64,000 bases of DNA from Parcubacteria group bacterium. GTDB lineage: Bacteria > Patescibacteriota > Minisyncoccia > Moranbacterales > UBA2206. Both the position numbers and the translations under genes were made by a program. Below, in pieces: positions 2,833 to 50,399 of the stretch. The stretch lies in the NCBI GenBank assembly GCA_041661275.1, contig JBAZUU010000002.1:33206-97205 (forward strand), given 5' to 3'. Position 1 is the first letter of the stretch, and each line of letters begins with the position of its first letter. The notes under the pieces were generated by a model. The model was not told the origin of the DNA. It worked only from the letters and a program-made list of their open reading frames with translations, and searched no databases.

Positions 2833-3252
2833 GTGTTTATTTCTAACGGGGTGAAACAAGTCATTGTTTTTGGAACTTTTGATATCTTTCACAAAGGACA
2901 TATGAGTTTTTTGCGCCAGGCTAAAAAATATGGCGACTTTTTATTGGTGGTCATTGCGAGAGATAGGATTGTCAAAAAAGTAAAAAGGAAATTACCCAGG
3001 AATAATGAAAAAAATCGGCTAAAAACAGTGGAGAATTCAGGATTAGCGGATGAGGTGGTTCTTGGACATCTGCGCGATATGTACGCTTTTATTAAAAAAT
3101 ATAAGCCTGATGTGATAGCCTTAGGCTACGACCAGACGGCCTTTGTGGATAAATTGGAAGAAAAACTTTTGTCCATGGATATGAAAAGTGTTAGAATTAT
3201 AAGGCTGAAAAGCTATCGGCCGAACATATATAAATCCTCTAAATTGATTTGA
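2833..3252 (+). CDS. Cytidylyltransferase-like nucleotidyltransferase (RibL/TagD-like, HxGH family)
   Basis: VFGTFDIFHKGHMSFL contains GxFDxxHxGH. True start probably internal to the listed ORF. Confidence 0.6.
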   Translation: MFISNGVKQVIVFGTFDIFHKGHMSFLRQAKKYGDFLLVVIARDRIVKKVKRKLPRNNEKNRLKTVENSGLADEVVLGHLRDMYAFIKKYKPDVIALGYDQTAFVDKLEEKLLSMDMKSVRIIRLKSYRPNIYKSSKLI

Positions 3253-3355
3253 TTATTTTTATAAATTAAGTTAACATTCATTTGATTGCCGGAATATCCG
3301 GTTTGTTGATGTTTTATTTTTGGGATATTATTTCTTTTTTTAATATTTTCATACT

Positions 3356-4069
3356 ATGGAAAAAGAACTGGAAAATGTGCCAGCTCACGTAGCGATCATT
3401 CCCGATGGCAACCGCCGCTGGGCGAGAGGCAAGGGAATGAAGCCGTGGGAAGGGCACGAAGTGGGAGCGAAAAATTTTGAAGTTCTGATAAAGCATTCGC
3501 TTAAAAAAGGCATAAAGTGTCTGACTATTTGGGGTTCGTCCATAGACAATCTGACTAAACGTCCATTTGATGAAAAGCGGGCCCTTCTTGATATATATAG
3601 TCGGTATTTTAAAAGGCTGTTGGATGGCAACGAGATCCATGAAAATGAAGTGCAAGTGAATGTCATTGGTCGGTGGGAAGAACAGTTTCCGGAGTCGCTC
3701 AAAAAAATAATCTATGAAGCCATGGAAAAAACCAGGCACTACAAGAAAAGGATGCTTAATTTTCTTTTGGCTTACAGTGGAACTGATGAAATGATTTTGG
3801 CAATCGAGTGTATTAGCAGCAAGTATGAAAAAGGCGTGAAAATTACGCCGGAGCTGATAAAGGAAAACCTTATGACCAGGGGTTTACCACCGGTCGACTA
3901 TTTGGTGCGTACCGGTGGAGAACCGCATAACAGCACAGGATTTATGATGTGGGATATCGCTGACGCTCAATACTATTTCTCGCCCGAACTTTTTCCGGAC
4001 TTTGATGACAAAAAATATGAAGAAGCGTTGGAAGAATACGCGAGACGTCAGAGGAGATTTGGAGGCTGA
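3356..4069 (+). CDS. uppS: Undecaprenyl diphosphate synthase (cis-prenyltransferase)
   Basis: HVAIIPDGNRRWA signature and overall UppS-like sequence. Confidence 0.9.
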   Translation: MEKELENVPAHVAIIPDGNRRWARGKGMKPWEGHEVGAKNFEVLIKHSLKKGIKCLTIWGSSIDNLTKRPFDEKRALLDIYSRYFKRLLDGNEIHENEVQVNVIGRWEEQFPESLKKIIYEAMEKTRHYKKRMLNFLLAYSGTDEMILAIECISSKYEKGVKITPELIKENLMTRGLPPVDYLVRTGGEPHNSTGFMMWDIADAQYYFSPELFPDFDDKKYEEALEEYARRQRRFGG

Positions 4070-4185
4070 ATAAAATTTTCAATTTGAAATTTTAAATTTA
4101 AAATCAAATCTTAATTTAAAATTTTAAATTAAATCATTAAAAATTTATTTCAAATTTCAAATTAAAAATTTAAAATTTTAATCAC

Positions 4186-4500
4186 ATGGCTCAAGAATTT
4201 ACAGACAATAACTTCGAACAAGAGGTATTAAAATCAGAAAAACCCGTTCTTGTCGACTTCTGGGCGCCTTGGTGTGGCCCATGTCAGGTCATGGGGCCGA
4301 TAATAGAAGAACTAGCCAGAGAAGTCGAAGGAAAAATAAAAATCGGAAAAATGAATGTTGATGAAAACCCCCGCATTGCTGAAGAATACGCGATTATGTC
4401 CATACCATCTCTCAAAGTTTTCAAAGGTGGAAAAGTGGTAAGGGAATTTGTCGGGTTGCAAGCCAAGGAAACGCTCAAAGAAGAATTAAATAAGATATGA
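4186..4500 (+). CDS. trxA: Thioredoxin
   Basis: WAPWCGPCQ active site. 104 aa. Confidence 0.9.
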   Translation: MAQEFTDNNFEQEVLKSEKPVLVDFWAPWCGPCQVMGPIIEELAREVEGKIKIGKMNVDENPRIAEEYAIMSIPSLKVFKGGKVVREFVGLQAKETLKEELNKI

Positions 4501-5423: not shown

Positions 5424-5497
5424 CTTCCTCCTCTCCCTTCGGGAGAGGATGTCAGCCAAATTTTTTCTTAAAAATTTTGGCTGACAGGAGAGGGGAC
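5424..5497. repeat. GC-hairpin palindromic repeat unit (family 1): CCTCTCCC-loop-GGGAGAGG, then a TGTCA...TGACA hairpin, then GGAGAGGG
   Basis: cctctcccttcgggagagg hairpin followed by tgtcagccaaa...tttggctgaca hairpin and ggagagggg. Near-identical units are at 9663-9726 and (in inverted orientation) 26625-26673. Confidence 0.7.
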
Positions 5498-8865: not shown

Positions 8866-8904
8866 TTCCCTTTCCTAAAACCGGGTTTTAGGATTCTATA
8901 TAAT

Positions 8905-8936
8905 GCCGGTTGTCGTGCTTGACAACCGGCTTTTTA
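8905..8936 (+). terminator. Rho-independent terminator after mltG
   Basis: gccggttgtcgtgcttgacaaccggc stem followed by ttttta. Confidence 0.75.
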
Positions 8937-8995
8937 TTTGCTATAATGGACTATCGTAGTTTGAAAATTGGCAGGTGAATTGTGGCTTGTTTAAG

Positions 8996-9075
8996 CCCGG
9001 TGGCACAACTTTGTAATAACAGCTTAAGTCAAATATAGGGGCTTGCTAAATAAATTCTTAAGTTGTGCCACCGGG
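8996..9075. repeat. Perfect 16-bp inverted repeat (cccggtggcacaactt / aagttgtgccaccggg) enclosing 48 nt. MITE-like or structured leader.
   Basis: Exact reverse complement arms read directly in the sequence, between mltG and a small ORF. Confidence 0.6.
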
Positions 9076-9259
9076 TAAGCCATCTGGTCGACATATGCTT
9101 TTTACGGTTCTGTCCGTGAGTTCTGCTCAAAACTCCCTCCTTAGTTTTGCGCGGGTAAAAATGTATTTTTTTGTGATATTTCATGGAAAGATGCTACTCT
9201 TGCGGATGGAATTGTGAAAGGCATTTTTTAATCGACAACATTCATGAACATGAAGGAGT

Positions 9260-9505
9260 ATGATTATGGATCTGGTATCTGTCGTTTTGTTTTCAATTGT
9301 TATATTGTCGGTAGTTTTTGGGATCGGCCAAAATTTTGGCGAACGATTGCTCAAAAAGAAATTAACCAAGGAGATATCCCGGCCTTACCGGGATGATGAT
9401 CCGATGCGCAACGAACATCGGATAGAAGTAAGAGTAGTCAGGCGCGGGAACAAAATTCGATACATCGGTCTCGTGCCCGGATCAACAAGGCAAATTTACG
9501 ATTAA
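9260..9505 (+). CDS. Small hypothetical membrane protein (81 aa)
   Basis: Strong ribosome-binding site (aaggagtatgattATG). N-terminal hydrophobic segment. No recognisable domain. Confidence 0.4.
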   Translation: MIMDLVSVVLFSIVILSVVFGIGQNFGERLLKKKLTKEISRPYRDDDPMRNEHRIEVRVVRRGNKIRYIGLVPGSTRQIYD

Positions 9506-9564
9506 AATAGCTGCGGCTGGGAGCGTCATTCCTGGCCGCGGTTTTTGTTTTGGCTTTTAGTATT

Positions 9565-9726
9565 CCCTCTCTCCCCTTGGGAGAGATGTCACGATTCTTA
9601 TCGTGACAGAGAGGGTGCTATGTAAAACGGAAAAATTAAAGTTTTGTGAATTTAATTTAGAACCCTCTCCTGTCAGCCAAAATTTTAAGAAAAATTTAGG
9701 CTGACATCCTCTCCCGAAGGGAGAGG
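9565..9726. repeat. Composite family-1 element: two hairpin-pair units in inverted orientation flanking ~47 bp
   Basis: Left unit ccctctctccccttgggagagatgtcacgattcttatcgtgacagagaggg. Right unit ccctctcctgtcagcc...ggctgacatcctctcccgaagggagagg is near-identical to the reverse complement of the 5424-5497 unit. Confidence 0.7.
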
Positions 9727-9739
9727 AGGAAGAATGAGG

Positions 9740-10306
9740 CTAAATTAATTTTTCAATTTCTTTTAGAACACCACTATACATTTCTTCTATTTTCTCTAAT
9801 TCTTCTCCTGAAAAGTTTTGCAAAACGAAATCGGCGGGTTCGATTTGAGAACGCAAATTTTCCGTGGCGATGCCGATGCGGATACGTTGGAATTCTTTAG
9901 TCCCCAGCTTAGTTATAATATCCTCGACACCATTATGCCCGGCAGAGCCGGACTGAGTCGCGATTTTGTATTCGCCCAGAGGCAAGTCGATGTCGTCGTG
10001 AATGACAATAATATCCTCCGGCGATAATTTATAAAAATCCAAAATAGTCCGGACGGAATCTCCAGAGTTGTTCATGAATGTTTGGGGCTTTAATAATAGG
10101 AATTTTGAATTTTGAATTTTGAATTTTGAATCCAGCAATCTTTCAGAAATTTCACTGTTAAACTTTTTATTTAATGTAAAATCGGGAAAATCGTATTTTT
10201 CCTTGATTCTATCCACCATCATAAACCCGACGTTGTGGCGGGTGTTTTCGTACTGTTTGCCAGGATTGCCCAGGCCGATTATTAATTTCATAAATGTCTG
10301 AACCAC
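9740..10306 (-). CDS. pth: Peptidyl-tRNA hydrolase
   Basis: MKLIIGLGNPGKQYENTRHNVGFMMVD N-terminal signature. Probable start at 10288. Confidence 0.85.
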   Translation of the reverse strand: MVQTFMKLIIGLGNPGKQYENTRHNVGFMMVDRIKEKYDFPDFTLNKKFNSEISERLLDSKFKIQNSKFLLLKPQTFMNNSGDSVRTILDFYKLSPEDIIVIHDDIDLPLGEYKIATQSGSAGHNGVEDIITKLGTKEFQRIRIGIATENLRSQIEPADFVLQNFSGEELEKIEEMYSGVLKEIEKLI

Positions 10307-16340: not shown

Positions 16341-17597
16341 ATGTCGAAAAAAGACATTGTTGTTGGTGTTGACGTCGGATCGTCTGCCATAAAAACTGTT
16401 ATTACCCAGCTTATCTCTACCGAGGAAAAACCGAGGATTATCGGAGTGGGAGTCGCGCCATCATCAGGCGTCAGGCGTGGAGTGATAGTTGATCTGGAAG
16501 AAGCGACAAAAGCCATCAGTGCTTCCATTGCGGAAGCAGAAAGGATGGCTGGTTTCGATGTTGATCGGGCGATAATAAGTATCGGCGGAAATCATATATG
16601 TTCTCAATATTCAAAGGGAGTGATTGCGGTCGGTCGGGCGGACGGAGAAGTGACGAGCGACGACATCGAAAGGGTGATCGGCGCCGCGCAAGCTATTTCT
16701 GTCCCGGCCAACAAGGAAATTATTCATATAATACCAAAAGATTATTCACTTGATGATCAGAAAAAAATAAAAGATCCTATTGGAATGAATGGAGTGCGGC
16801 TGGAAGTGGACGCGATGATCATAGAGGGATCCACCCCTTTTATTAGAAATCTCACCAAATGTGTGGAGCAAGCAGGAATTGGCATTGAAAGTTATGTCCT
16901 TTCTCCACTGGCGGCGGCTCAATCCACGCTTTCCAAGAGACAAAAAGAACTCGGAGTTATTCTTGTTGATATAGGTGGTGGATCAACATCTATTGCTGTC
17001 TTTGAAGAAAATGACCTTTTGCATACTTCAGTTATTCCTGTTGGTGGCGGTCACATAACAAATGACATCGCCATCGGTCTTCGGACTTCAGTGGACGTGG
17101 CCGAACAGGTGAAATTGGAATTTGGAAATGCTATGCCGAGTGAAATTGGAAAAAAAGAAGACATTGATCTGTCGCAAATAGATCCACAGGAAGAAGGAAT
17201 GGTTTCCCGGTTTCATGTGGCACAAATTGTGGAAGCGCGACTGGAAGAAATTTTTTCCATGGTCAACAAAGAGTTAAAGGTTATAGGAAAGGACAAGCTT
17301 CTCCCAGCTGGAGTAATTCTGACCGGTGGAACGGCTAAACTTCCAGGGTGTGTCGATCTGGCTAAAAATACGCTTGGGTTACCAGCGCAAACCGGTTTTC
17401 CTATGCCTTTGGGAGGGCTCGTTGATAAAGTTGATGAACCGACCTACGCTACTGTTATTGGCCTTGTCCTATGGGGTCTGGAGAGCGCCTATTCTAAGAG
17501 CGTAATGGCTAAAAGTGGTATAATACAGACTATTCCGGGCAATGTGGGTGAAACAGTGACCAGCATCAAAAAGTGGTTGGGGAAGTTTTTGCCGTAA
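16341..17597 (+). CDS. ftsA: Cell division protein FtsA
   Basis: VVGVDVGSSAIKTV actin-like phosphate-1 motif, ILVDIGGGSTSIAVF, GGGHITNDIA. Confidence 0.9.
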   Translation: MSKKDIVVGVDVGSSAIKTVITQLISTEEKPRIIGVGVAPSSGVRRGVIVDLEEATKAISASIAEAERMAGFDVDRAIISIGGNHICSQYSKGVIAVGRADGEVTSDDIERVIGAAQAISVPANKEIIHIIPKDYSLDDQKKIKDPIGMNGVRLEVDAMIIEGSTPFIRNLTKCVEQAGIGIESYVLSPLAAAQSTLSKRQKELGVILVDIGGGSTSIAVFEENDLLHTSVIPVGGGHITNDIAIGLRTSVDVAEQVKLEFGNAMPSEIGKKEDIDLSQIDPQEEGMVSRFHVAQIVEARLEEIFSMVNKELKVIGKDKLLPAGVILTGGTAKLPGCVDLAKNTLGLPAQTGFPMPLGGLVDKVDEPTYATVIGLVLWGLESAYSKSVMAKSGIIQTIPGNVGETVTSIKKWLGKFLP

Positions 17598-17903
17598 AGC
17601 CAAAACTGCTAATAGATCCTTCGCATATCGGCTAATGCCGATATTGCTCAGGATGGCGGATTTTCCGCCAATTTGACACGAGTGCAACTTGTATGATAGA
17701 TTTATATATCAGATAGGGAAAATGGGCTAAAAATCATATTCTGACAAGTTGTCGGCCGAACCGAAAAAATCTAAACTGATTTTCAAAAAACAAAAAACTC
17801 AAAAATAAAAATATACAAAGATAACGCATATCTCTTTTCTTTGTAGTTTGATTTTTGAGTTTATTTTTTTAACAGATCTAAAATCTTATTTATATAAAAT
17901 TAT

Positions 17904-19871: not shown

Positions 19872-22067
19872 ATGATGGCAAAACAAAAACACAAATTGGG
19901 GGCGGCAATGGGGGGCGACCGGAAAAAGAAAAAGAAAATTACTAACAAGATCACAAAAATTGTGAAGCGCGACGGAACGGTGGCGGACTTCAGTCAGAAA
20001 AAGATTGTGGAAGCGGTTTACAAAGCTTTTTGCGAAACGGACGAAGCGGGTTTGAAGGAAGCGCGGATGGTGAGTGAAAAAGTCGTGTCTATGATGAACA
20101 GAAAAGCTATCCCTGATATTATTCCTAGCATCGAACAGATCCAGGACTTGGTGGAAAAAGTGCTGATGATCATGGATTTTGACGAAACGGCCAAGGCCTA
20201 TATTCTCTATCGTGATAAGCGGGCCAAGATCCGCGATACCGAAGCTTCACTCACTGAAGCAGTCGACTTAATTGAAAAATATATCCAAGAAATTGACTGG
20301 CAGGTGAAAGAAAATGCCAATATGGCTTACTCCTTACAAGGTCTTAACAACTACATTTCTTCTATTGTCAGCTCCAAATATTGGATGGATAGGGTTTATC
20401 CTAAATCTATTAAACGGGCTCACGAAGAAGGGGATTTCCATATTCATGACCTGGACAAGATCGCCGCCTATTGCTGCGGGTGGGACTTGCAGGATCTTCT
20501 GACGCGCGGTTTTACCGGAGTTTCCGGAAAACTTTCCTGCAAACCGCCAAAACACTTGCGAAGCGCTCTTGGACAGGTGGTGAACTTTTTCTACACTACT
20601 CAAGGCGAAACAGCTGGCGCGCAGGCCTTTTCCAATTTTGACACGCTTCTTGCTCCATTTGTGAGGTATGACAAGCTAAATTATGAATCAGTGAAGCAGG
20701 CGATGCAGGAATTTATTTTTAACCTTAATGTTCCAACCAGGGTCGGATTCCAGACACCATTTACTAATCTGACCATGGATCTCAATTGTCCTTCGACATA
20801 CAAAGATCAGAACGTTATTATTGGTGGGGTGCCGCAAAAAGAAAAATATTCTGATTTTCAAGAGGAGATGGATGTTATCAACCGCGCTTTTGCCGAAGTG
20901 ATGAGCGCTGGAGACGCTTCTGGCAGGGTGTTCACTTTTCCCATCCCAACTTATAACATTACTAAAGATTTTAAGTGGGACAATCCCAACCTTGATAAAG
21001 TTTGGGAAATGACTGCCAAATTTGGTATTCCATATTTTGCCAACTTCATCAATTCCGATATGAACGCGGATGACGCGCGCTCAATGTGTTGCCGATTGCG
21101 CCTCGATAACCGCGAACTGCATAAGCGGATGGGCGGGCTTTTTGGTGCGGCGCCTCTCACCGGATCGGTGGGGGTGGTGACACTTAATATGCCACGCCTT
21201 GGGTATCTGGCCAAAGACAAAAAAGATTACTTCAAGCGTCTTGACGATCTTATGGATTTGGCGAAAGAGAGTCTCGAGATGAAAAGAAAGATAATTGAAA
21301 ATTATACGGTCGGAGGCCTATATCCATACTCCAAATATTATCTGGACAACATTTTCAAGCGTCGCGGATCGTATTGGGGCAATCATTTTTCCACTATCGG
21401 ACTTCTCGGGCTCAATGAATCGCTGGTTAATTTCATGGGAGAAAGCATCACCTCGAAAAAGGGCCAGAAATTTGCCGAAGAGGTGCTAGAACATATGAGA
21501 GACAGGATGATAAAGTATCAGGGAGAAACGGGAAATCTATATAATCTGGAAGCGACACCGGCCGAAGGAACGAGTTACCGTCTGGCGCTCAAAGACAAAA
21601 AACGATTTCCTAAGATGATATTTGCCAATAATGGCGCGGTAGAAAAAGGCGCAGAGCCATACTATACTAATTCTTCACAGCTTCCAGTGAGTTATACCGA
21701 TGATATTTTTGAAGCGCTAGATCTTCAGGATAAGTTGCAAACTAAATACACTGGCGGAACGGTACTTCATGGATTTTTAGGAGAGCGGATCTATGATATA
21801 GAAACGACCAAAAAACTAGTGAAAAAGATCGCTTCCAACTATTCTTTGCCATATTTCACTCTTTCACCGACATTTTCCATCTGTCCTAATCACGGTTACA
21901 TCGAGGGTGAACATGCCACCTGTCCTAAATGCGTGGTAGAACAAAAATGTGAAGTTTATTCCAGGATAGTCGGTTATATCCGACCGATCGAACAATGGAA
22001 CGCCGGCAAAGCGCAAGAATTCATCGATAGGAAAGAATATAGGGTGAAGGCAAAGGTGGCAAAATAA
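19872..22067 (+). CDS. nrdD: Anaerobic ribonucleoside-triphosphate reductase (class III)
   Basis: N-terminal ATP-cone, C-terminal Zn ribbon CPNHGY...CPKC and glycine-radical motif SRIVGYIRP. Confidence 0.9.
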   Translation: MMAKQKHKLGAAMGGDRKKKKKITNKITKIVKRDGTVADFSQKKIVEAVYKAFCETDEAGLKEARMVSEKVVSMMNRKAIPDIIPSIEQIQDLVEKVLMIMDFDETAKAYILYRDKRAKIRDTEASLTEAVDLIEKYIQEIDWQVKENANMAYSLQGLNNYISSIVSSKYWMDRVYPKSIKRAHEEGDFHIHDLDKIAAYCCGWDLQDLLTRGFTGVSGKLSCKPPKHLRSALGQVVNFFYTTQGETAGAQAFSNFDTLLAPFVRYDKLNYESVKQAMQEFIFNLNVPTRVGFQTPFTNLTMDLNCPSTYKDQNVIIGGVPQKEKYSDFQEEMDVINRAFAEVMSAGDASGRVFTFPIPTYNITKDFKWDNPNLDKVWEMTAKFGIPYFANFINSDMNADDARSMCCRLRLDNRELHKRMGGLFGAAPLTGSVGVVTLNMPRLGYLAKDKKDYFKRLDDLMDLAKESLEMKRKIIENYTVGGLYPYSKYYLDNIFKRRGSYWGNHFSTIGLLGLNESLVNFMGESITSKKGQKFAEEVLEHMRDRMIKYQGETGNLYNLEATPAEGTSYRLALKDKKRFPKMIFANNGAVEKGAEPYYTNSSQLPVSYTDDIFEALDLQDKLQTKYTGGTVLHGFLGERIYDIETTKKLVKKIASNYSLPYFTLSPTFSICPNHGYIEGEHATCPKCVVEQKCEVYSRIVGYIRPIEQWNAGKAQEFIDRKEYRVKAKVAK

Positions 22068-23402: not shown

Positions 23403-24317
23403 ATGAAAATAAACTTCAAAGCTCTTGGCACGGATATTTCTATCCAGATCATTTCTGATAATATTTCCAATGGTTTAGAAGAAGAGATAAAGAATTTCTA
23501 TTGCGAAAAAGAAAAAACATTCAGCCGGTTTGATAAAAATAGCAAATTAAGCACTCTTAATAATAATCTTGGCAAGTACAATACTGCTTCATCTGATATA
23601 ATAGAAGTGGCCGGGAAATGTTTGGAATATAATAAAGATACGGATGGTTATTTTGATCCAAGAATTATTGAAGTTTTAGAGAGTATCGGATATGACAAAG
23701 ATTTTCGTAAAATCAATTCCGAGGAAATAAAAAAAGAATCCTTAGACATCAAATGTCTAAGTGATGATTTGGGTAGCGATTTGAAAATTGACGGCGATAA
23801 AATTTATTTCAGATGCCGGATGGATTTTTCCGGCATTGCCAAGGGATATATAACAGATAAGTTAGCTAATTATTTACAAGAAAGGGGATATACCAATTTT
23901 TTGATAGATTCCGGCGGGGATATCCGTATTTCAGGAAAAGATGAAAACGGGGAAAATTGGAAAATTTCCCTGGAAGGTGTGGCGGAGGAAAAAATACTTC
24001 TGGAATTAAACAATAATTTTCCGGCCATTGCCACTTCCGGCATAACACGAAGAAAGTGGGAAAATGAATCTGGGAAATTCCATCATCTAATTAATCCTAA
24101 AAGTCCCGGAGAGTTTAATTTCAATCTCAAATCAGCAACGGTTGTAGCCAGGACTTGCGAAGAAGCTGATATCTGGGAAAAAGTTTTGTATCTTATGGGG
24201 AAAGAAAACGGAATACAATTTTCGGAAGAAAAAAATATAAAAAGTTTATTTTTGGATTATAAAGGGAATATTCAAGTTTCTGGAGTTATGAAAAATAATA
24301 TAAATATCAATGGGTGA
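23403..24317 (+). CDS. apbE: FAD:protein FMN transferase (ApbE family)
   Basis: ApbE-like length and motifs (FSGIAKGY, IDSGGDI). Confidence 0.75.
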   Translation: MKINFKALGTDISIQIISDNISNGLEEEIKNFYCEKEKTFSRFDKNSKLSTLNNNLGKYNTASSDIIEVAGKCLEYNKDTDGYFDPRIIEVLESIGYDKDFRKINSEEIKKESLDIKCLSDDLGSDLKIDGDKIYFRCRMDFSGIAKGYITDKLANYLQERGYTNFLIDSGGDIRISGKDENGENWKISLEGVAEEKILLELNNNFPAIATSGITRRKWENESGKFHHLINPKSPGEFNFNLKSATVVARTCEEADIWEKVLYLMGKENGIQFSEEKNIKSLFLDYKGNIQVSGVMKNNINING

Positions 24318-25088: not shown

Positions 25089-26684
25089 GTGACCAAATCA
25101 AAAGTATTTTTTATTTTATCATTGGGTTTTATCGGGGGTGTTTTTAGTGCCTCTTTTTATTATCCCAGTCTGATTGATAATTATTATTTATTAATTTTAG
25201 TTTTGCTAGCTGTTATAATTCTAGCTATTTTTTACAAAAAACCGGCGATGATGGCCGGATTTTTTATATTATTTTTTATTTTTGGTATACACTTGACGGA
25301 AAAAAGACTGGAAGTGGTGAAAAATATAAAAGAAGATGATTTTTCGGGGGAGGTTGTGGTAATAGGCGAGCCAACAATATCAGGCAGGCAACAAAGAATG
25401 GTTGCTTTTCCCAAGATCCAACCTTTGGAGCAGCTCCCAAGGTTGAACCTTGGAACTGATTCAAGATTTTTAATAACCGCTGGAATTTTTCCTGAATATA
25501 AATATGGAGATGTTTTGAGAGTTGATTGTAAATTGGAAATTCCAAAGAATTTTGGACGAGGTCCTTCGACTGCGTCCGACTTGCGGTCGGACTCCGCTCA
25601 GGACGAATCCTCCGGATTCGATTACAAAATGTATCTAGCCAAAGACGGGATTTATTATCTTTGCAATAATCCTAAAATAGAAGATCTTAATAGAAACGAA
25701 GGAAATAAATTTTACGCGGCGATATTGAATATTAAAAATAAATTTAATGACAATATAATGAAGCTGATGCCGTCGCCGCAGTCGGGGTTGCTTTCGGGAT
25801 TATTAATCGGAGGATCGGGGCTACTTTCTAAAGACTATCAAAATTATTTTTCTCTCACCGGCACAACGCACATCGTAGCAGTGTCCGGATACAATGTAAC
25901 AATTGTCGCGGAATATCTGATGCTTCTGGGACTTTTTATCGGTCTCTGGCGGCAGCAAGCCTTTTGGTTTGCGGCTATTGGAATAATTTTTTTTGTAATT
26001 TTAACCGGCATGCCGTCTTCGGCCGTTCGGGCGGGAGTGATGGGGATTCTTCTCATTTGGGCGATGAAGAACGGGCGATTGGCTAACGCGCAAAATGCTA
26101 TCATATTTGCGGCGGGAGTTATGCTATTGGCAAATCCATTGTCATTGCGTTGGGATGTCGGATTTCAACTGTCATTTTTGGCGACACTGGGGATCGTTTA
26201 TGTTTATCCGATATTTAATGAATATCTTATGAAATTAGACGCGATGAATCGCGTCTCTACGATTGCGGAAATATTATTTCTTACACTATCGGCGCAGGTT
26301 TTTGTTTTGCCGATATTGATGATTAATTTTGGAAAATTGTCTCTCATTTCACCTCTGGCTAACGTCCTGATTTTGCCCATTATTCCGCTCACGATGCTCA
26401 CCGGATTTATAGCTATCCTTTTTAGTTTTATCATTCCGCCCATCGGTCAAGTCTTCGCCTGGTTGGCCTTTTTGCCGTTGAAATATGAAACGATGGTAAT
26501 AAAATTTTTGGCCAGTCTAAAATATTCCTCGGTGGAAATTTCCAATTTTTCGTGGATTGGAGTGGTTTTGTGGTATATAATTTTAGGAGGAGGGGTAGTT
26601 TTGATTAAAAAGAAAATAACAAATCCTCCTCTCCCCTTGGGAGAGGATGCCGAGTCTTCGAGGCAGGAGAGGGCTCCTAATTAA
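25089..26684 (+). CDS. comEC: ComEC/Rec2 competence channel protein (DUF4131 + competence domains)
   Basis: Multi-pass membrane protein. GYNVTIVAEYLM and competence-domain similarity. Last 19 codons and the stop are contributed by repeat element C. Confidence 0.8.
   Translation: MTKSKVFFILSLGFIGGVFSASFYYPSLIDNYYLLILVLLAVIILAIFYKKPAMMAGFFILFFIFGIHLTEKRLEVVKNIKEDDFSGEVVVIGEPTISGRQQRMVAFPKIQPLEQLPRLNLGTDSRFLITAGIFPEYKYGDVLRVDCKLEIPKNFGRGPSTASDLRSDSAQDESSGFDYKMYLAKDGIYYLCNNPKIEDLNRNEGNKFYAAILNIKNKFNDNIMKLMPSPQSGLLSGLLIGGSGLLSKDYQNYFSLTGTTHIVAVSGYNVTIVAEYLMLLGLFIGLWRQQAFWFAAIGIIFFVILTGMPSSAVRAGVMGILLIWAMKNGRLANAQNAIIFAAGVMLLANPLSLRWDVGFQLSFLATLGIVYVYPIFNEYLMKLDAMNRVSTIAEILFLTLSAQVFVLPILMINFGKLSLISPLANVLILPIIPLTMLTGFIAILFSFIIPPIGQVFAWLAFLPLKYETMVIKFLASLKYSSVEISNFSWIGVVLWYIILGGGVVLIKKKITNPPLPLGEDAESSRQERAPN
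25437..25453. repeat. REP-like palindrome CCAAGGTTGAACCTTGG inside the comEC reading frame
   Basis: Identical palindrome flanks the RAYT gene at 49526-49550 and 50232-50258. Here it encodes ...LPRLNLGT... in frame. Confidence 0.7.
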
Positions 26685-26773
26685 ATTCGCAAAACTATAA
26701 GCTTGTTACTGTTTCACCAAGAGCCCTCTTTGTCACGATAAGAATTGTGACATCTCTCCCAGGGGGAGAGAGG
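26625..26773. repeat. Composite family-1 GC-hairpin element (two inverted units) spanning the comEC stop
   Basis: cctcctctccccttgggagagg...gagaggg and ccctctttgtcacgataagaattgtgacatctctcccagggggagagagg. The right unit is nearly the reverse complement of the 9565-9615 unit. Confidence 0.7.
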
Positions 26774-26980
26774 AAAGAAAAAAGACAATAAAAAAATCCC
26801 CGATTCTTAACCGCGGCGGCGGCGAAAGTCGGGGGCTAATCCCACCATGGATCGTTCCAGATCAGATGGGCGATGATATGAAAAATAATGTCACTTAGAT
26901 TGTATATCATATCATGATTTCACTAAAAAATCAAGCGCTCTCATACGATAAGCTAAAATTCTCCTTAACCAAGCCAAAAT

Positions 26981-27811
26981 ATGCCTAATCGAAAAGCCCT
27001 ATATTTAATCCTCCTGACTCTTGCTATCATTGCCGCTATTTTGGCGGGGATTATTTGGTATCAGCAAAAACAAGAAATGAAAGTGGTTTTTTTTGATGTG
27101 GGACAAGGGGATTCCATTCTGATTGAGCAGGGAAGTAATCAGATTTTGATTGATGGTGGACCGGACGGAAAAAAAGTAATGGAAAAATTGGGCGAATATG
27201 TACCGTTTTGGGATAGGAATATAGAAGTGGTGATAGCGACTCATCCGGACGAAGACCATATTGACGGGCTCATTGATGTCATGGAAAATTACAATATTGG
27301 TGAAATAATCGATAATGGAGCTGATGTAGACAGTCAGGTTTATAAAAAATATCAGGACGTAATCTCGCAAAAAAATATCAATCGTATCGAGGGAAAATCG
27401 GGAATGGAAATAAAACTGGCGGATAATACAAAACTTTCTATTTTATCTCCTGATGGAACGCAAGACAAAAATAACCCGAAAGATACAAATCTTTCGAGCA
27501 TCGTTTCTAAACTAACTTTCGGTGAAAATAGTTTTTTATTTACTGGCGATTTTCCGACAGAAGGCGAGCAAGATTTATTTAGTAAAAATATCGATTTACG
27601 CGCGCGAGTGCTGAAAGTAGCTCATCATGGGTCAAAATATGCAACAAGTGACGAATTTCTAGATAAAGTTAACCCACAAGAGGCAGTAATATCCGTTGGG
27701 AAAAACAATAGATATGGACACCCGGCAGAGGATGTGATAAGCAGATTGGAAGCGCATAAAATTAATATAAAAAGAACCGATGTATCCGGAGATATCGAGT
27801 ATCAATTTTAA
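26981..27811 (+). CDS. Metallo-beta-lactamase fold protein, ComEC C-terminal-like (ComEC/Rec2-related)
   Basis: N-terminal transmembrane helix. FFDVGQGDSILIE, HPDEDHIDGL, LKVAHHGS MBL motifs. Confidence 0.75.
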   Translation: MPNRKALYLILLTLAIIAAILAGIIWYQQKQEMKVVFFDVGQGDSILIEQGSNQILIDGGPDGKKVMEKLGEYVPFWDRNIEVVIATHPDEDHIDGLIDVMENYNIGEIIDNGADVDSQVYKKYQDVISQKNINRIEGKSGMEIKLADNTKLSILSPDGTQDKNNPKDTNLSSIVSKLTFGENSFLFTGDFPTEGEQDLFSKNIDLRARVLKVAHHGSKYATSDEFLDKVNPQEAVISVGKNNRYGHPAEDVISRLEAHKINIKRTDVSGDIEYQF

Positions 27812-41724: not shown

Positions 41725-43509
41725 ATGCAGATACGTAACATTGCTATTATTGCTCACGTCGACCATGGGAAAACCACTCTGACTGATGCCATTATGAAGG
41801 AGACCGGCATCTCAAAGGAAGGGGCGACTATGGATTCCAACGCTCTAGAACAAGAGCGTGGTATTACGATTTACGCTAAAAATACTTCTATCTTCTACAA
41901 AGATACAAAGATTAATATCGTGGACACTCCCGGGCACGCTGATTTTGGTTCGGAAGTAGAGCGGGTTTTGCGATCGATTGATTCGGTAGTTCTGGTTGTG
42001 GACGCCCAGGAAGGCCCGATGCCACAAACACGATTTGTTCTCAAAAAATCCTTGGAGTTGGGATTGAAACCGATTGTTGTTATAAACAAAATCGATAAAC
42101 CAGCGGCTGATCCCGACTGGGTCCAGGAAAAAGTTTTTGAGCTGTTCTTGGATCTGGGCGGAAACGATGAGCAACTAGACTTCACTACTGTCTATGCTAT
42201 TGCCAAGCAGGGGATAGCCAAGATGCACCTGGATGATGAATCAACTGATCTCACGCCGCTTCTAGATACAATTCTCGCGCATGTTGCGCCAGCGCCGGAC
42301 AACAGTGAAATGCAGCTGCGCGCGCAGCCGTTCAATCTTGGATATGATAATTTTTTGGGACGCCTCGCAGTATCTCGAATTTATGAAGGAAAAATAAAAG
42401 TCGGAGATAATTTGACGATAAAAAATCCGGACGGAAACACCAGGATCGGACGAGTGACAAAATTATATATTTTTCACGGTATTGAAAAAAAGGAAGTGGA
42501 AGAGGCGCTGGCTGGAGACATCGTGATGATTGCCGGATTTCCGGATATCGAGATCGGCGAAACTTTTTGCGCGGACGCATCACAGGAGGCATTGCCGGCC
42601 ATTTCTATTGATGAGCCGACGATAACTTTGCGATTTTTGGTGAATGATTCTCCTTTTGCCGGGCGAGAAGGAAAATTTGTGACCGGACAACAGATTCGTG
42701 AAAGATTGCAAAAAGAATTGGAAATAAATGTAGGGCTGAAAGTAGATTTTTCATCGAATGATCATTTGACAGTTTCAGGACGAGGAGAATTACACATCGC
42801 GATACTTCTGGAGAATATGCGACGCGAGGGATATGAAGTTCAGGTGTCACAGCCAAAAGTTATTATCAAAGAAATTGATGGAAAAAAACACGAGCCATTC
42901 GAAGAAGTGACTATCGATGTGCCAAGTTCAGTCAGTGGCACGGTCATTGAAGCTCTTGGAACAAGAAAGGGCATTATGACTAATATGGAAACCAAAGGCA
43001 GTCAGACGAGAATCCTGTTCGAAGCGCCGACGCGCGGACTTCTTGGATATCGCGGACAATTCATGGTGGAAACAAAAGGCGAAGGAATTTTGTGTTCACG
43101 CATGAACGGTTTTCGGCCATATGTGGGCGAAATTAAGAGAAAAGATGTCGGTTCGATGGTTTCTATGGCGACAGGAAAAGCTTTGGGATTTTCTCTGGCT
43201 AACCTTCAAGAAAGAGGCGTTCTATACATCAACGCCGCCGAAGAAGTTTATGAAGGAATGGTTATTGGAAACGTCACCAAAGGAAATGAAATGGCCGTCA
43301 ATCCTATCAAAGGAAAACAAATGAGCAATATGCGTTCTTCCGGCGCAGATGCCGCTATCCATCTCACTCCGCCGATGACAATTTCCATTGAACGGGGATT
43401 GGAAGTGATGAATGAAGATGAATATCTAGAAGTTACTCCCGGATCAGTCCGCCTTCGAAAACAGTATCTTACCGAGAACGACAGAGTAAAAGCGGCGAGG
43501 AAAAAATAA
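41725..43509 (+). CDS. typA: Translational GTPase TypA/BipA
   Basis: [18 protein letters not shown]1, DTPGHADF G3, NKID G4. ~600 aa. Confidence 0.9.
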
Positions 43510-43637
43510 TCACTTAGACATTCGATGTCTAAGTAGAGATGTCTAAGCAAAAAATAAATCTTTTAGAAAAAATTAAAATCCCAGAGAGGAATAGATCCTT
43601 CCGGGATTTTTTATTTGTGTTTGAAATACTACACCAA

Positions 43638-48198: not shown

Positions 48199-49521
48199 AT
48201 GAATGATAAACCAAAAAAATTAGTATATCTGGAAAAAATCCTTCGTCTGATGGCTGTTTTGGTGTTGAAAAAATACCACCCTCGCATCATTGGTATCACC
48301 GGATCAGTGGGAAAAACTTCAGCCAAAGAAGCTATTTTCACAGTTTTAGCGAGTCATGGAAGTGTCAGAAAGAATGAAAAAAACTACAACAATGAAATAG
48401 GCCTGCCACTGACTATTATCGGGACAGAAACAGGCGGAGATTCTCTGGCTGGTTGGATGAGAGTATTTTTGAAATGGACCGGTCTTGTTGCATACCCTGC
48501 AAAATATCCGGAATTTCTGATTTTGGAAATTGCCGCTGACCGGCCAGGCGATGTTAAGTATCTGGTTGATTTTGTGAAACCTGAACTTGGTGTTATCACC
48601 GACATATCCGGAAGCCATTTGGAATTTTTTAAAACTTTGGAAGGAATAACAAAAGAAAAAGGATATCTGGCCAAAAATGTAAAAGAAAATGGCGCGGCTA
48701 TTCTTAATATCGACAATCCTCAACTGAAAAAATTGAAAAACGAAACAAAATCGAGAGTGCTAACATTTGGATTTGGAGAGGAAGCGGATATTCGAGCCAC
48801 TGATGTTCTGTATAACTATGCGTCCAATGAGCAAAACGGAAATAGAGAATTGAAAGGATTGAGCTTTAAGTTAAATTACAAAGGAACATCAATGCCGATG
48901 CGGCTCAATAATATTTTGGCGGAACACAGCATCTATTCGGCTCTGGCCGGAGTGGCCGTGGGGATTGAGATGGGTTTGAATCTTGTGGAAATAGGGAAGG
49001 CTCTCGAAAATTTTTCTTTGCCGTCGGGTCGCATGAATCTTATCCGCGGAATAAAAAACACTATTCTTATCGACGATACCTATAATGCATCTCCGGTTTC
49101 CACTGCGGCGGCTCTTAAAGTTTTCAAAAGCATTGAAGCTAAAAGAAAAATCGCAGTTCTCGGCGATATGCTGGAACTGGGAATAAACACTGAACCAGGG
49201 CACAGGGAAGTGGCCAGGGAATTCTTGGCGTCTGGCGGAAATATTTTTATGGCAGTAGGCCGTCGAATGGAGCAGGCAATAGACGAACTCAAAAAACATA
49301 ACATCGATGAAAACAGAATTTTCCATTTCAGATCGCCAATGGAAGCCGGACTTAAACTTCAAGAAATCATGCATGAGGGTGATTTAATCCTGATTAAAGG
49401 GTCGCAGGGAATGAGAATGGAAAAGATCGTGGAAGAGGTGATGGCCGAACCTCTACGCGCTCCGCAACTTCTTTGTCGTCAGGATGAGAAATGGAGGAAG
49501 AAGGAGTGGAAGGAAGTCTAA
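48199..49521 (+). CDS. murF: UDP-N-acetylmuramoyl-tripeptide--D-alanyl-D-alanine ligase
   Basis: GITGSVGKTS P-loop, DDTYNASP (MurF-type) motif. 3' end abuts the REP/RAYT insertion. Confidence 0.8.
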   Translation: MNDKPKKLVYLEKILRLMAVLVLKKYHPRIIGITGSVGKTSAKEAIFTVLASHGSVRKNEKNYNNEIGLPLTIIGTETGGDSLAGWMRVFLKWTGLVAYPAKYPEFLILEIAADRPGDVKYLVDFVKPELGVITDISGSHLEFFKTLEGITKEKGYLAKNVKENGAAILNIDNPQLKKLKNETKSRVLTFGFGEEADIRATDVLYNYASNEQNGNRELKGLSFKLNYKGTSMPMRLNNILAEHSIYSALAGVAVGIEMGLNLVEIGKALENFSLPSGRMNLIRGIKNTILIDDTYNASPVSTAAALKVFKSIEAKRKIAVLGDMLELGINTEPGHREVAREFLASGGNIFMAVGRRMEQAIDELKKHNIDENRIFHFRSPMEAGLKLQEIMHEGDLILIKGSQGMRMEKIVEEVMAEPLRAPQLLCRQDEKWRKKEWKEV

Positions 49522-49525
49522 AGCT

Positions 49526-49550
49526 ACTTCCAAGGTTGAACCTTGGAAGT
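49526..49550. repeat. REP-like palindrome ACTTCCAAGGTTGAACCTTGGAAGT (left flank of RAYT)
   Basis: Perfect 25-nt palindrome directly after the murF stop. Confidence 0.8.
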
Positions 49551-49564
49551 GAGAATTTTATTAT

Positions 49565-50233
49565 ATGCAAAGAAAAATACCATTTATCAATGGGGAGTTT
49601 CATCATATTTATAATCGCGGAGTAGATAAACGCGAAATTTTTCTAGATAGAGATGATTATGAAAGGTTTTTTATTTCTATGTATTTTTTAAATACCAAGG
49701 AAAATGATCTGATAAGCAAGTGGTTAGATTTTAAGAAATTTAATCCCAAGGTTCAACCTTGGGAGTTTAAAAAAATAAAGTCGGAAGATAAACTCGTTGA
49801 GCTTAATTGTTATTGTCTAAATGATAATCATTACCACTTTATTATAAAACAACTTCGAGATAGAGGTATTGAAATATTTATGCAGAAACTGGGAACGAGT
49901 TACACTATGTATTTTAATAAGAAGTATGACAGAAGCGGATCATTGCTTCAGGGAAGGTTTAAGTCGGCTTATATTGACTCCGATGATAAATTGCTCTATT
50001 TGTCAGCGTATGTGAATAAAAATCATTCTATCCATGGGTATAAAGAGGGTGATAATTGGCAATATTCAAGTTTGAATGAATACCTGAATAAAAGCAAAAC
50101 TTTTTGTCTTTGCAATAAAAGTCCGATCATTGATCAATTCAGGGACATAAAGGAGTATCAAAACTATATAAATGTGAATGCGCTACAGATGAGAGAAAGT
50201 AAAGAAATGGAAAAAATGGCATTGGAATTTTAA
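49565..50233 (+). mobile_element. IS200/IS605-like HUH-Y1 transposase of REP-associated type (RAYT)
   Basis: YHIYNRG first-strand motif, HuH motif NDNHYHFII, Tyr motif LYLSAYVNKNH (compare E. coli TnpA-REP DYIYINPVKHG). Flanked on both sides by the same palindrome. Confidence 0.75.
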
Positions 50234-50258
50234 CTTCCAAGGTTGAACCTTGGAAGTT
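50232..50258. repeat. REP-like palindrome AACTTCCAAGGTTGAACCTTGGAAGTT (right flank of RAYT)
   Basis: Perfect palindrome. Immediately followed by a diverged copy of the murF 3' end (50259-50313). Confidence 0.8.
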
Positions 50259-50399
50259 ACTTCTCTGTCGGCAAGACGCAAAATGGAAAAGAAAGCCGTG
50301 GAAGGAAGTTTAGTGTAAGATTATTTTTAGAAATAGTAAAACCCCTGGCGGAATACCGGCCAGGGGTTTGTTGTTTATACCTCCTTGTAGCTATAGCAG

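Follow-up and report, generated by a model that had tools for sequence, protein, structure and literature searches.

Classical Rickettsia palindromic elements (RPEs) of the RPE-1 type are over 100 bp long, and the systems formed by repetitive extragenic palindromes (REPs), REP doublets forming hairpins (REPINs) and REP-associated tyrosine transposases (RAYTs) are said to have been described by Nunvar in 2010, by Bertels and Rainey in 2011 and by Ton-Hoang in 2012. RPEs have been presented as "selfish DNA in protein-coding genes" (Ogata et al. 2000, summarized in PMC3733652), and REPs lying wholly within open reading frames (ORFs) were found in several species by Di Nocera et al. (2013), mostly as dimers encoding 20 to 30 amino acids and proposed to sit in flexible linkers or loops (PMC3733652). 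REPs tagged with CGTC, which include the in-frame Rickettsia elements RPE-4 and RPE-6, are without a dedicated transposase and consist of an 8- to 9-bp stem starting with A/T pairs, a 4- to 5-nt loop and a CCA tail (PMC3733652). Coding perfect inverted repeats of up to 284 bp are also described for mitochondrial genes of Nematomorpha (PMC6649704). Here, we analyzed in-frame palindromes in the competence gene comEC of a Parcubacteria group bacterium, a Moranbacteria-like member of the Candidate Phyla Radiation (CPR), on a stretch of 64,000 nucleotides (NCBI GenBank assembly GCA_041661275.1, contig JBAZUU010000002.1, positions 33,206 to 97,205), hereafter the window.

The analysis indicated that comEC has probably been colonized at four places, namely, three internal loops and the C terminus, by short nonautonomous palindromic repeats, and we put at roughly three in four the probability that these palindromes are REP/REPIN-type selfish DNA tolerated in frame in permissive loops and at the C terminus. 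This case is one of a known kind, that of RPEs and intragenic REPs, in a new host group and not a new kind of system. Features of its own are a non-GTAG REP occurring across distant CPR classes, a distant RAYT with a REP in frame, a single gene with four elements that belong to at least three families, and one loop reoccupied by different families. The elements concerned are as follows.

comEC, 25089..26684, plus strand: intact ORF of 531 amino acids with N-terminal transmembrane helices, an OB-fold/DUF4131 part and a Competence channel domain
RAYT-like cassette, 49526..50259, plus strand: REP (49526-49550), ORF of a Y1 HUH transposase (49565-50233) and REP (50231-50259)
Site A left unit, 25409..25430, no strand assigned: degenerate inverted RAYT-associated REP TCCCAAGATCCAACCTTTGGAG, 19/22 identical to 49744-49765
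Site A right unit, 25434..25459, no strand assigned: RAYT-associated REP with the exact palindrome at 25437-25453; encodes LPRLNLGT
REP doublet, 25411..25453, no strand assigned: one long imperfect hairpin with a DNA folding free energy (dG) of -11.4 and z of -3.5, reached by 0/200 shuffles
Site B, 25560..25607, plus strand: long-form repeat GGTCCTTCG-(hairpin)-GCTCAGGACGAA; encodes GPSTASDLRSDSAQDE
Hairpin 2, 25574..25592, no strand assigned: GTCCGACTTGCGGTCGGAC, GTCCGAC-TTGCG-GTCGGAC, the inner, variable hairpin of site B
Hairpin 3, 25604..25620, no strand assigned: CGAATCCTCCGGATTCG, CGAATCC-TCC-GGATTCG
Site C, 26237..26260, minus strand: GTAG-tagged REP-type palindrome GTAG-AGACGCGAT-TC-ATCGCGTCT with z of -4.0; encodes LDAMNRVST
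Site D, 26624..26775, plus strand: structured repeat of ~150 nt with a DNA fold z of -4.7

The comEC inserts resemble RPEs in that palindromes stand in frame in a functional and conserved gene, the extra peptide is apparently tolerated, several occur per gene, and the host genome is small and reduced; likewise, the gene is intact, the inserts are absent from most orthologues, and their location in loops is predicted. They differ from RPEs in that the sequences are presumably unrelated, the units are 17 to 60 nt long (lengths that argue against RPE membership), the host is a CPR bacterium and not an alphaproteobacterium, and RPEs are without an associated transposase, whereas one family here flanks a RAYT-like gene. 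The nematomorph repeats share with them the position within protein-coding genes and the translation of both arms; they differ in belonging to animal mitochondria, in their much greater maximum length and in having no transposase association.

The host gene is intact. ComEC shows Pfam matches to DUF4131 (amino acids 32 to 156) and Competence (amino acids 238 to 508), retains every residue that is invariant across 64 orthologues, and is identical (100%) to [quoted passage not shown] (P0001), with the nearest relatives carrying the label Candidatus Moranbacteria. The window agrees at 100% identity with an independent ENA assembly along the 24 kb where they overlap, and the sequence is therefore not an assembly quirk. 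The same ENA contig added 10.8 kb to the 64-kb window, giving a genome scope of ~75 kb, and no extra copy of any palindrome family was detected in the added part. Perfect hairpins (stem of at least 7, arm GC of at least 0.5) numbered five in comEC against 0.11 expected (~45-fold; 0/300 shuffles) and 30 in the whole window against 5.3 in shuffles (~6-fold); two of the five, AGACGCGATGAATCGCGTCT at 26237-26256 and TCCTCTCCCCTTGGGAGAGGA at 26627-26647, went beyond those pointed out in an earlier reading made from the sequence alone (the sequence-only reading). Rfam searches returned two tRNAs only for the whole window at the gathering threshold, and only sub-threshold generic microRNA-like hairpins in E-value mode for 25300-26900 and five metagenome loci with the site B repeat; thus, no known RNA family is involved. 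Internal terminators were considered and rejected, as a terminator scan showed no hairpin-plus-T-run at sites A to C. No metallo-beta-lactamase nuclease domain is fused to the C terminus of ComEC; a Lactamase_B gene stands separately (26981-27811), ~300 nt downstream, and this gene order is syntenic in most orthologue loci reaching beyond comEC.

The repeat at site A belongs to the family that flanks the RAYT-like gene. The 17-mer CCAAGGTTGAACCTTGG is present exactly at 25437-25453, 49530-49546 and 50237-50253, and with a complementary center base at 49746-49762 within the transposase ORF; in total, eight strand-matches with at most two mismatches were found in the window, compared with 0.01 expected from shuffles. 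In the cassette, the 17-mer forms the core of perfect palindromes of 25 nt (49526-49550) and 29 nt (50231-50259), which lie 15 nt upstream of the transposase start and overlap its stop, respectively. The perfect palindromes at 25437, 49526, 49744 and 50231, 17 to 29 nt long, agree with the short, hairpin-forming nature of REPs (~20 to 40 nt), and the center base (G or C) followed no consistent orientation rule for RAYT flanks across loci. The transposase ORF (222 amino acids) matches Pfam Y1_Tnp (25.5 bits; gathering threshold, 23), and its HUH motif (NHYH) and conserved Tyr-containing motif align with those of five REP-flanked homologues. The right unit of site A agrees with the upstream RAYT flank at 22 of 23 nt (25437-25459 versus 49530-49552), that is, beyond the palindrome, and with the reverse complement of the REP inside the transposase gene at 20 of 20 nt. 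Considering that the exact REP and its degenerate inverted partner fold as one hairpin, site A is a REPIN-type doublet with one arm decayed. By inspection, five of the six frames of the 17-mer are open.

Two further observations concern the cassette. The RAYT-like gene holds its own REP in frame (49744-49764, TCCCAAGGTTCAACCTTGGGA, peptide NPKVQPWEF), in a variable stretch where the two closest aligned homologues (L107 and L070) are 12 residues shorter. In addition, the Mur ligase gene (48199-49521) has its final ~54 nt (49467-49521, stop included) repeated with ~76% identity at 50259-50312, immediately downstream of the REP-RAYT-REP cassette, which looks as though the cassette came in close to the Mur ligase 3' end together with, or beside, a replacement 3' end.

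Comparison with other ComEC proteins (alignments of 25, 64 and 120 sequences, with 119 orthologues listed) revealed that typical orthologues have 485 to 495 amino acids, against 531 in the window protein, and that the length differences cluster at four places: amino acids ~107 to 126 (site A), ~155 to 176 (site B), ~383 to 391 (site C) and the C-terminal tail (site D). In codon alignments, the site A doublet adds ~13 codons relative to insert-free orthologues (L112 and L114 are without the insert), and its LPRLNLG segment is found in 0 of the 119 orthologues; the insert is therefore lineage specific. In the orthologues whose DNA was read, the same loop is occupied by other palindromes, which differ between lineages: a hairpin with a 17-bp stem in L001 (CTCCAGAGGCTCAACCT-CAG-AGGTTGAGCCTCTGGAG), a 42-nt perfect palindrome of the CCnAAGG...CCTTnGG flavor seen in the window in L007, CTTAGACATCAAATGTCTAAG in L005 (within 3001-4485), which is identical to the window palindrome 23741-23761 and nearly identical to that at 43512-43534, doublets of the GGACAT...ATGTCC type in L006 and L113, and ACTTGGACACGAAGTGTCCAAGT in L235. 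The insert of L003 is nonpalindromic, and L112 and L114 have neither insert nor hairpin. Strong folding at site A accompanies the inserts, that of L003 excepted, and is not seen in insert-free orthologues. Approximately 45 of 120 orthologues carry 5 to 18 extra residues at this site, often with palindrome peptide signatures (e.g., TSDV...GHxMSK), and these are interleaved with insert-free sisters, so that filled and empty states are mixed among close relatives on the neighbor-joining tree. The third palindrome family, (A)CTTAGACAT-NNN-ATGTCTAAG(T), which L005 shares with the window, occurs in the window in frame in ApbE (23741-23761) and right after the stop of ORF 41725-43509 (43512-43534); the ApbE palindrome was dropped as an insertion, being not clear against two orthologues.

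An AlphaFold2 model of ComEC (predicted local distance difference test [pLDDT], 85.8; predicted template modeling score, 0.82) contained four blocks below pLDDT 70: residues 111 to 120 (54), 151 to 180 (157 to 174 below 50), 261 to 270 (63, in the Competence domain) and the tail, 511 to 531, for which the values were 46 to 64. In the model, site A connects strands 101-108 and 126-132 of the OB-fold part as a loop, site B is the coil running from strand 141-150 to helix 179-184, and site C is the loop that joins helices 357-383 and 391-414. The inserts were modeled as coil linking secondary-structure elements, and their pLDDT was 39 to 63 versus 85.8 overall. The encoded peptides are thus predicted to lie on the surface or in loops of ComEC. 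Being multiples of three in length, free of stops and placed in a surface loop or the tail, the inserts are therefore translated as disordered peptides and tolerated, and the peptides are probably neutral. The sequence-only reading had noted that the RAYT-flanking palindrome and a partial copy of it stand in the comEC frame, and had taken them to look like insertions into the linker between DUF4131 and Competence, to be checked for lineage specificity. The palindrome is indeed exact within an intact ORF, the partial copy is the degenerate inverted REP at 25409-25430, and the alignments bear out the insertion; the linker placement fails for this palindrome, as site A falls in a loop of the OB-fold and therefore inside the DUF4131 match.

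To place the RAYT-associated REP in a wider context, one genome per species (596 Gb) was scanned for the 17-mer. CCAAGGTTSAACCTTGG was found at 104 loci, close to a rough chance expectation of ~70; thus, the total says little, and the enrichment in CPR, the multicopy genomes and the linkage to RAYTs are what is meaningful. At least 54 of the 104 loci belonged to CPR, including Saccharibacteria, Taylor-, Wolfe-, Niyogi-, Nomura-, Zambryski-, Kaiser- and Moranii-bacteria and Paceibacterota. For instance, RYN_406, FW300_bin.23 and Taylorbacteria MHRY01 each contained several distinct loci, some of which had two or three copies, and inverted doublets with 8- to 28-nt spacers were present in L010, L015, L031, L047 and L235. 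Moreover, five other CPR loci encoded RAYT homologues (33 to 40% identity; E, 4e-32 to 2e-19), with the REP on their flanks in every case, which links the REP to a Y1 transposase in six CPR genomes, the window included. The REP, usually as a doublet, was also in frame within genes of the RVT_1 (L021), Dus (L027), Fmt (L031), ABC-F ATPase (L084) and IPPT/MiaA (L034) families, with Pfam matches running across the insert. In L235, a Moranbacteria contig related to the window organism, variant doublets of the form CTAAGGTTSAACCTTAG are found a short way upstream of comEC and spanning its stop codon. The same contig has, ~9 kb from comEC (20900-21503), a bAvd-like gene beside a reverse transcriptase gene, a pairing characteristic of diversity-generating retroelements.

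Taken together, the RAYT-associated REP behaves like a REP/REPIN-RAYT system, despite having no GTAG tag and a distant transposase. The likeness consists in a short hairpin repeat flanking a single-copy Y1 HUH gene, in inverted doublets, and in copies at gene ends that supply stops. The differences are that the CCAAGGTTSAACCTTGG REP is without GTAG or CGTC, that the transposase is distant from curated RAYTs, and that the 17-mer is common to distant CPR classes (Saccharibacteria and Paceibacteria-type groups) and not species specific, with a copy number that appears low here. In the literature searched, and limited to that set, no article combined RAYT or REPIN with CPR names.

TnpA-REP of Escherichia coli, like TnpA of IS200/IS605, reportedly handles single-stranded hairpin DNA, as is said to have been worked out by Ton-Hoang et al. 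in 2012. In the most likely history of site A, the REP would have been cut and pasted, or copied, as single-stranded hairpin DNA by the RAYT-like Y1 transposase of this genome, or would have arrived by gene conversion from another REP copy. The target loop would already have tolerated or attracted palindromes. Insertions would survive only where their length is a multiple of three, no stop arises and the protein tolerates the loop.

The second segment highlighted by the sequence-only reading, site B, consists of a very widespread repeat of another family. Its two hairpins, GTCCGACTTGCGGTCGGAC and CGAATCCTCCGGATTCG, are present and in frame as that reading had said, and the segment is, like site A, an insertion relative to most of the 119 orthologues at a length-variable position; the suggested kinship with the RAYT-flanking REP is not borne out. 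The same segment was also found at the same site in 5 of the 119 orthologues, so that lineage specificity holds for it in part only, and the refuting observation named in that reading is partly borne out for this segment. A metagenome scan for GGTCCTTCG-N(3-33)-GCTCAGGACGAA yielded at least 133 matches at at least 120 loci. Among the matches listed, 106 were compact 25-nt forms, GGTCCTTCGACRRGCTCAGGACGAA, usually followed by CGG, and ~25 were long forms with a variable hairpin in place of the 4-nt core, the same layout as 25560-25607. Hence, the family is defined by both arms plus the 4-nt core or an inner variable hairpin, and the window element matches this definition exactly. Most of the hosting contigs, again among the matches listed, had 55 to 70% GC, and in these high-GC environmental contigs the GGTCCTTCGACRRGCTCAGGACGAA(CGG) motif, 25 to 28 nt long, often forms inverted pairs ~40 to 65 nt apart (L115 to L234). 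No name for this motif was found in Rfam or the literature searched, and a literature search with site B sequence strings gave unrelated primer matches only. On the minus strand, site B starts with TTCGTCCTGAGC..., a CGTC motif beside a hairpin with a 5-nt loop, which recalls the CGTC-tagged REPs; it differs from them in its GC-rich 7-bp stem, in having no CCA tail and in being set between conserved 9-nt and 12-nt arms. An intergenic element at 17618-17653, downstream of ORF 16341-17597, reads CCTTCG-[ATATCGGC-TAAT-GCCGATAT]-T-GCTCAGGA; it has the CCTTCG and GCTCAGGA cores like site B and is smaller, with a similar one in L006.

The 53-nt site B stretch folds better than shuffles (z, -3.3; 1/200). 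Hairpin 2 reads GTCCGAT/ATCGGAC in L112, a compensated change, and hairpin 3 forms between the 3' end of the element and conserved Phe-Asp codons of comEC. Its pairing is complete (100%) in four distinct orthologue sequences, among which two pairs differ at both positions (a value matched by 8/500 shuffles). P0005, which is sister to the window protein, carries the segment GRGPSTASDLRSDSAQDESS, and diverged versions of it occur in P0016, P0021, P0025 and P0052; the closest relatives P0002, P0003, P0004 and P0006 do not have it. The termini GGTCCTTCG and GCTCAGGACGAA are kept to the nucleotide in L112, L113 and L114, synonymous positions included, and third-codon-position identity among the window, L112, L113 and L114 is 0.58 to 0.79 in the insert (only 19 codons) versus 0.43 to 0.55 in the membrane core. 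These data fit an element under constraint at the DNA level or one whose acquisition postdates the divergence of the gene. A candidate target-site duplication, GGACGA, was dropped because it was not conserved in orthologues. The element may be older than that of site A or separately acquired, and the same position may have been entered several times, or the element may have spread by homologous recombination between comEC alleles; the data fit both.

For site B alone, a doubtful though still credible alternative is that GRGPS...SAQDESS is an old low-complexity linker that the ComEC clade inherited from a common ancestor and that was lost in most members, or one exchanged by homologous recombination, without ever having been inserted here as a mobile element, its likeness to the repeat being ancestral or coincidental. 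Such a linker would suit the occurrence of the segment at one position in six orthologues of 54 to 100% identity and the want of a second copy in the ~75 kb, and allelic exchange would be plausible in an organism that encodes DNA-uptake machinery. However, the carriers are scattered among noncarriers on a neighbor-joining tree built from the conserved core, and the third positions of site B are more conserved than those of the membrane core, contrary to the faster divergence that a disordered loop would be expected to show. Its 9-nt and 12-nt termini also match a very abundant repeat exactly, the inner hairpin fits the long-form architecture, and a smaller CCTTCG/GCTCAGGA element surrounds a hairpin in the intergenic DNA at 17618-17653.

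Sites C and D complete the four insertions. On the minus strand, site C has the layout of a classical GTAG-tagged REP, and five orthologues carry GGACAGAY-N5-RTCTGTCC there, with GTAG preceding on the minus strand (e.g., GTAG-GGACAGAC...GTCTGTCC). Its helix is 97.5% paired with one compensated pair, a weak signal that 99/500 shuffles also reach. At site D, the first hairpin (26627-26647, TCCTCTCCCCTTGGGAGAGGA) and ~60 nt make up the last ~20 codons and the stop of comEC, and orthologues end ~20 amino acids earlier than the window protein. The whole repeat shares 83% identity with 9566-9730 read as its reverse complement, and part of it recurs at 5426-5451. Its hairpins are TCCTCTCCC...GGGAGAGGA, AGAGGGCTC...GAGCCCTCT, TGTCACGAT...ATTGTGACA and TCTCTCCC...GGGAGAGA; it showed no Rfam match and could be a MITE (miniature inverted-repeat transposable element) or a small RNA gene. 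MITEs are 70 to 300 bp long with terminal inverted repeats and a target-site duplication; sites A to C are 20 to 60 nt long with no target duplication, and site D does have a hairpin at each end, but no more than two complete copies of it were seen. The stretch 8866-9740 (~870 nt) contains no ORF of at least 100 amino acids and is densely set with GC-rich hairpins, at 8873, 8905, 9376, 9568, 9587 and 9707.

Several observations weigh against tolerated REP/REPIN-type selfish DNA as the explanation. With respect to the enzyme, the transposase scored 20.2 bits against the NCBIfam RAYT equivalog NF047646 (cutoff, 80) and is therefore only a distant relative of curated RAYTs, and the REP flanking it reads gctACTTCCAAGG..., without the GTAG tag that is typical of RAYT substrates. 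With respect to dispersal, comEC is the only locus of this REP outside the cassette in the 75 kb of this genome, so that its dispersal here rests on one case; the site B stretch had no second copy, either by blastn against the window or in the same 75 kb, and most relatives of the site B element, among the matches listed, are on high-GC non-CPR contigs. Filled and empty sites are too diverged for insertion boundaries or target duplications to be read, and the repeated occupancy of a loop might reflect one ancient insertion followed by divergence and loss. Finally, the hairpins stay paired through compensated changes, which makes selection on structure, instead of neutrality, possible.

A further extension of the tolerated selfish-DNA interpretation would be CPR-wide palindrome turnover, in which different REP families recolonize the same permissive loops because an existing hairpin is a preferred target; if true, REPs would be a major source of lineage-specific loop insertions in CPR proteins. 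In a bolder form, the CCAAGGTTSAACCTTGG hairpin, which is common to distant CPR classes and lies within and around the uptake gene, would also serve as a tag for uptake, similar to a DNA uptake sequence, or for recombination. We regard this extension as unlikely.

Less probable again is that the hairpins are functional nucleic acid structures under selection, with candidate roles in translation pausing at domain boundaries while the protein enters the membrane, in transcript stability or in recognition by a protein or the uptake machinery, and with the peptides as by-products. In line with this, the pairing of hairpin 3 is kept while the encoded residues change (S/T/A and G/S), the site C helix is almost fully paired with its compensated pair, hairpins are retained at three loops in many lineages, and the synonymous positions of site B are more conserved than those of the core. 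The covariation samples are tiny, however, with 8/500 and 99/500 shuffles reaching the observed values for hairpin 3 and site C, and quasipalindrome correction by template switching is an established mutational mechanism that keeps arms complementary without selection, so that complementarity here may persist through such correction during replication. Moreover, about half or more of the otherwise well-conserved orthologues are insert-free at each site, one site holds unrelated palindrome families that also occur in intergenic DNA, and neither terminator-like tails nor an Rfam match speaks for a structural role. Chance palindromes or an assembly artifact in an AT-rich genome are effectively refuted: single 7-bp hairpins are common (48 expected per 64 kb, GC content ignored), but comEC has five GC-rich ones against 0.11 expected, comEC and the RAYT flanks share the 17-mer exactly, the independent assembly is identical, and orthologues from unrelated metagenomes show the same in-frame palindromes.

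These findings suggest that intragenic palindromic selfish DNA, documented mainly in Rickettsia and a few REP-rich species, is also present in the ultra-small, reduced genomes of CPR bacteria, and they identify a RAYT-like transposase together with a REP common to distant CPR classes. For annotation, low-complexity peptides in CPR proteins, for example PRLNLG, KVQPW, GPST...SAQDE, VETRHCLVST and NPPLPLGE, are to be read as repeat derived, and variation in orthologue length at such loops should not be taken as a change of functional domains. Moreover, the ComEC loop that has been reoccupied by different families offers a tractable case for studying how hairpin elements choose their targets.

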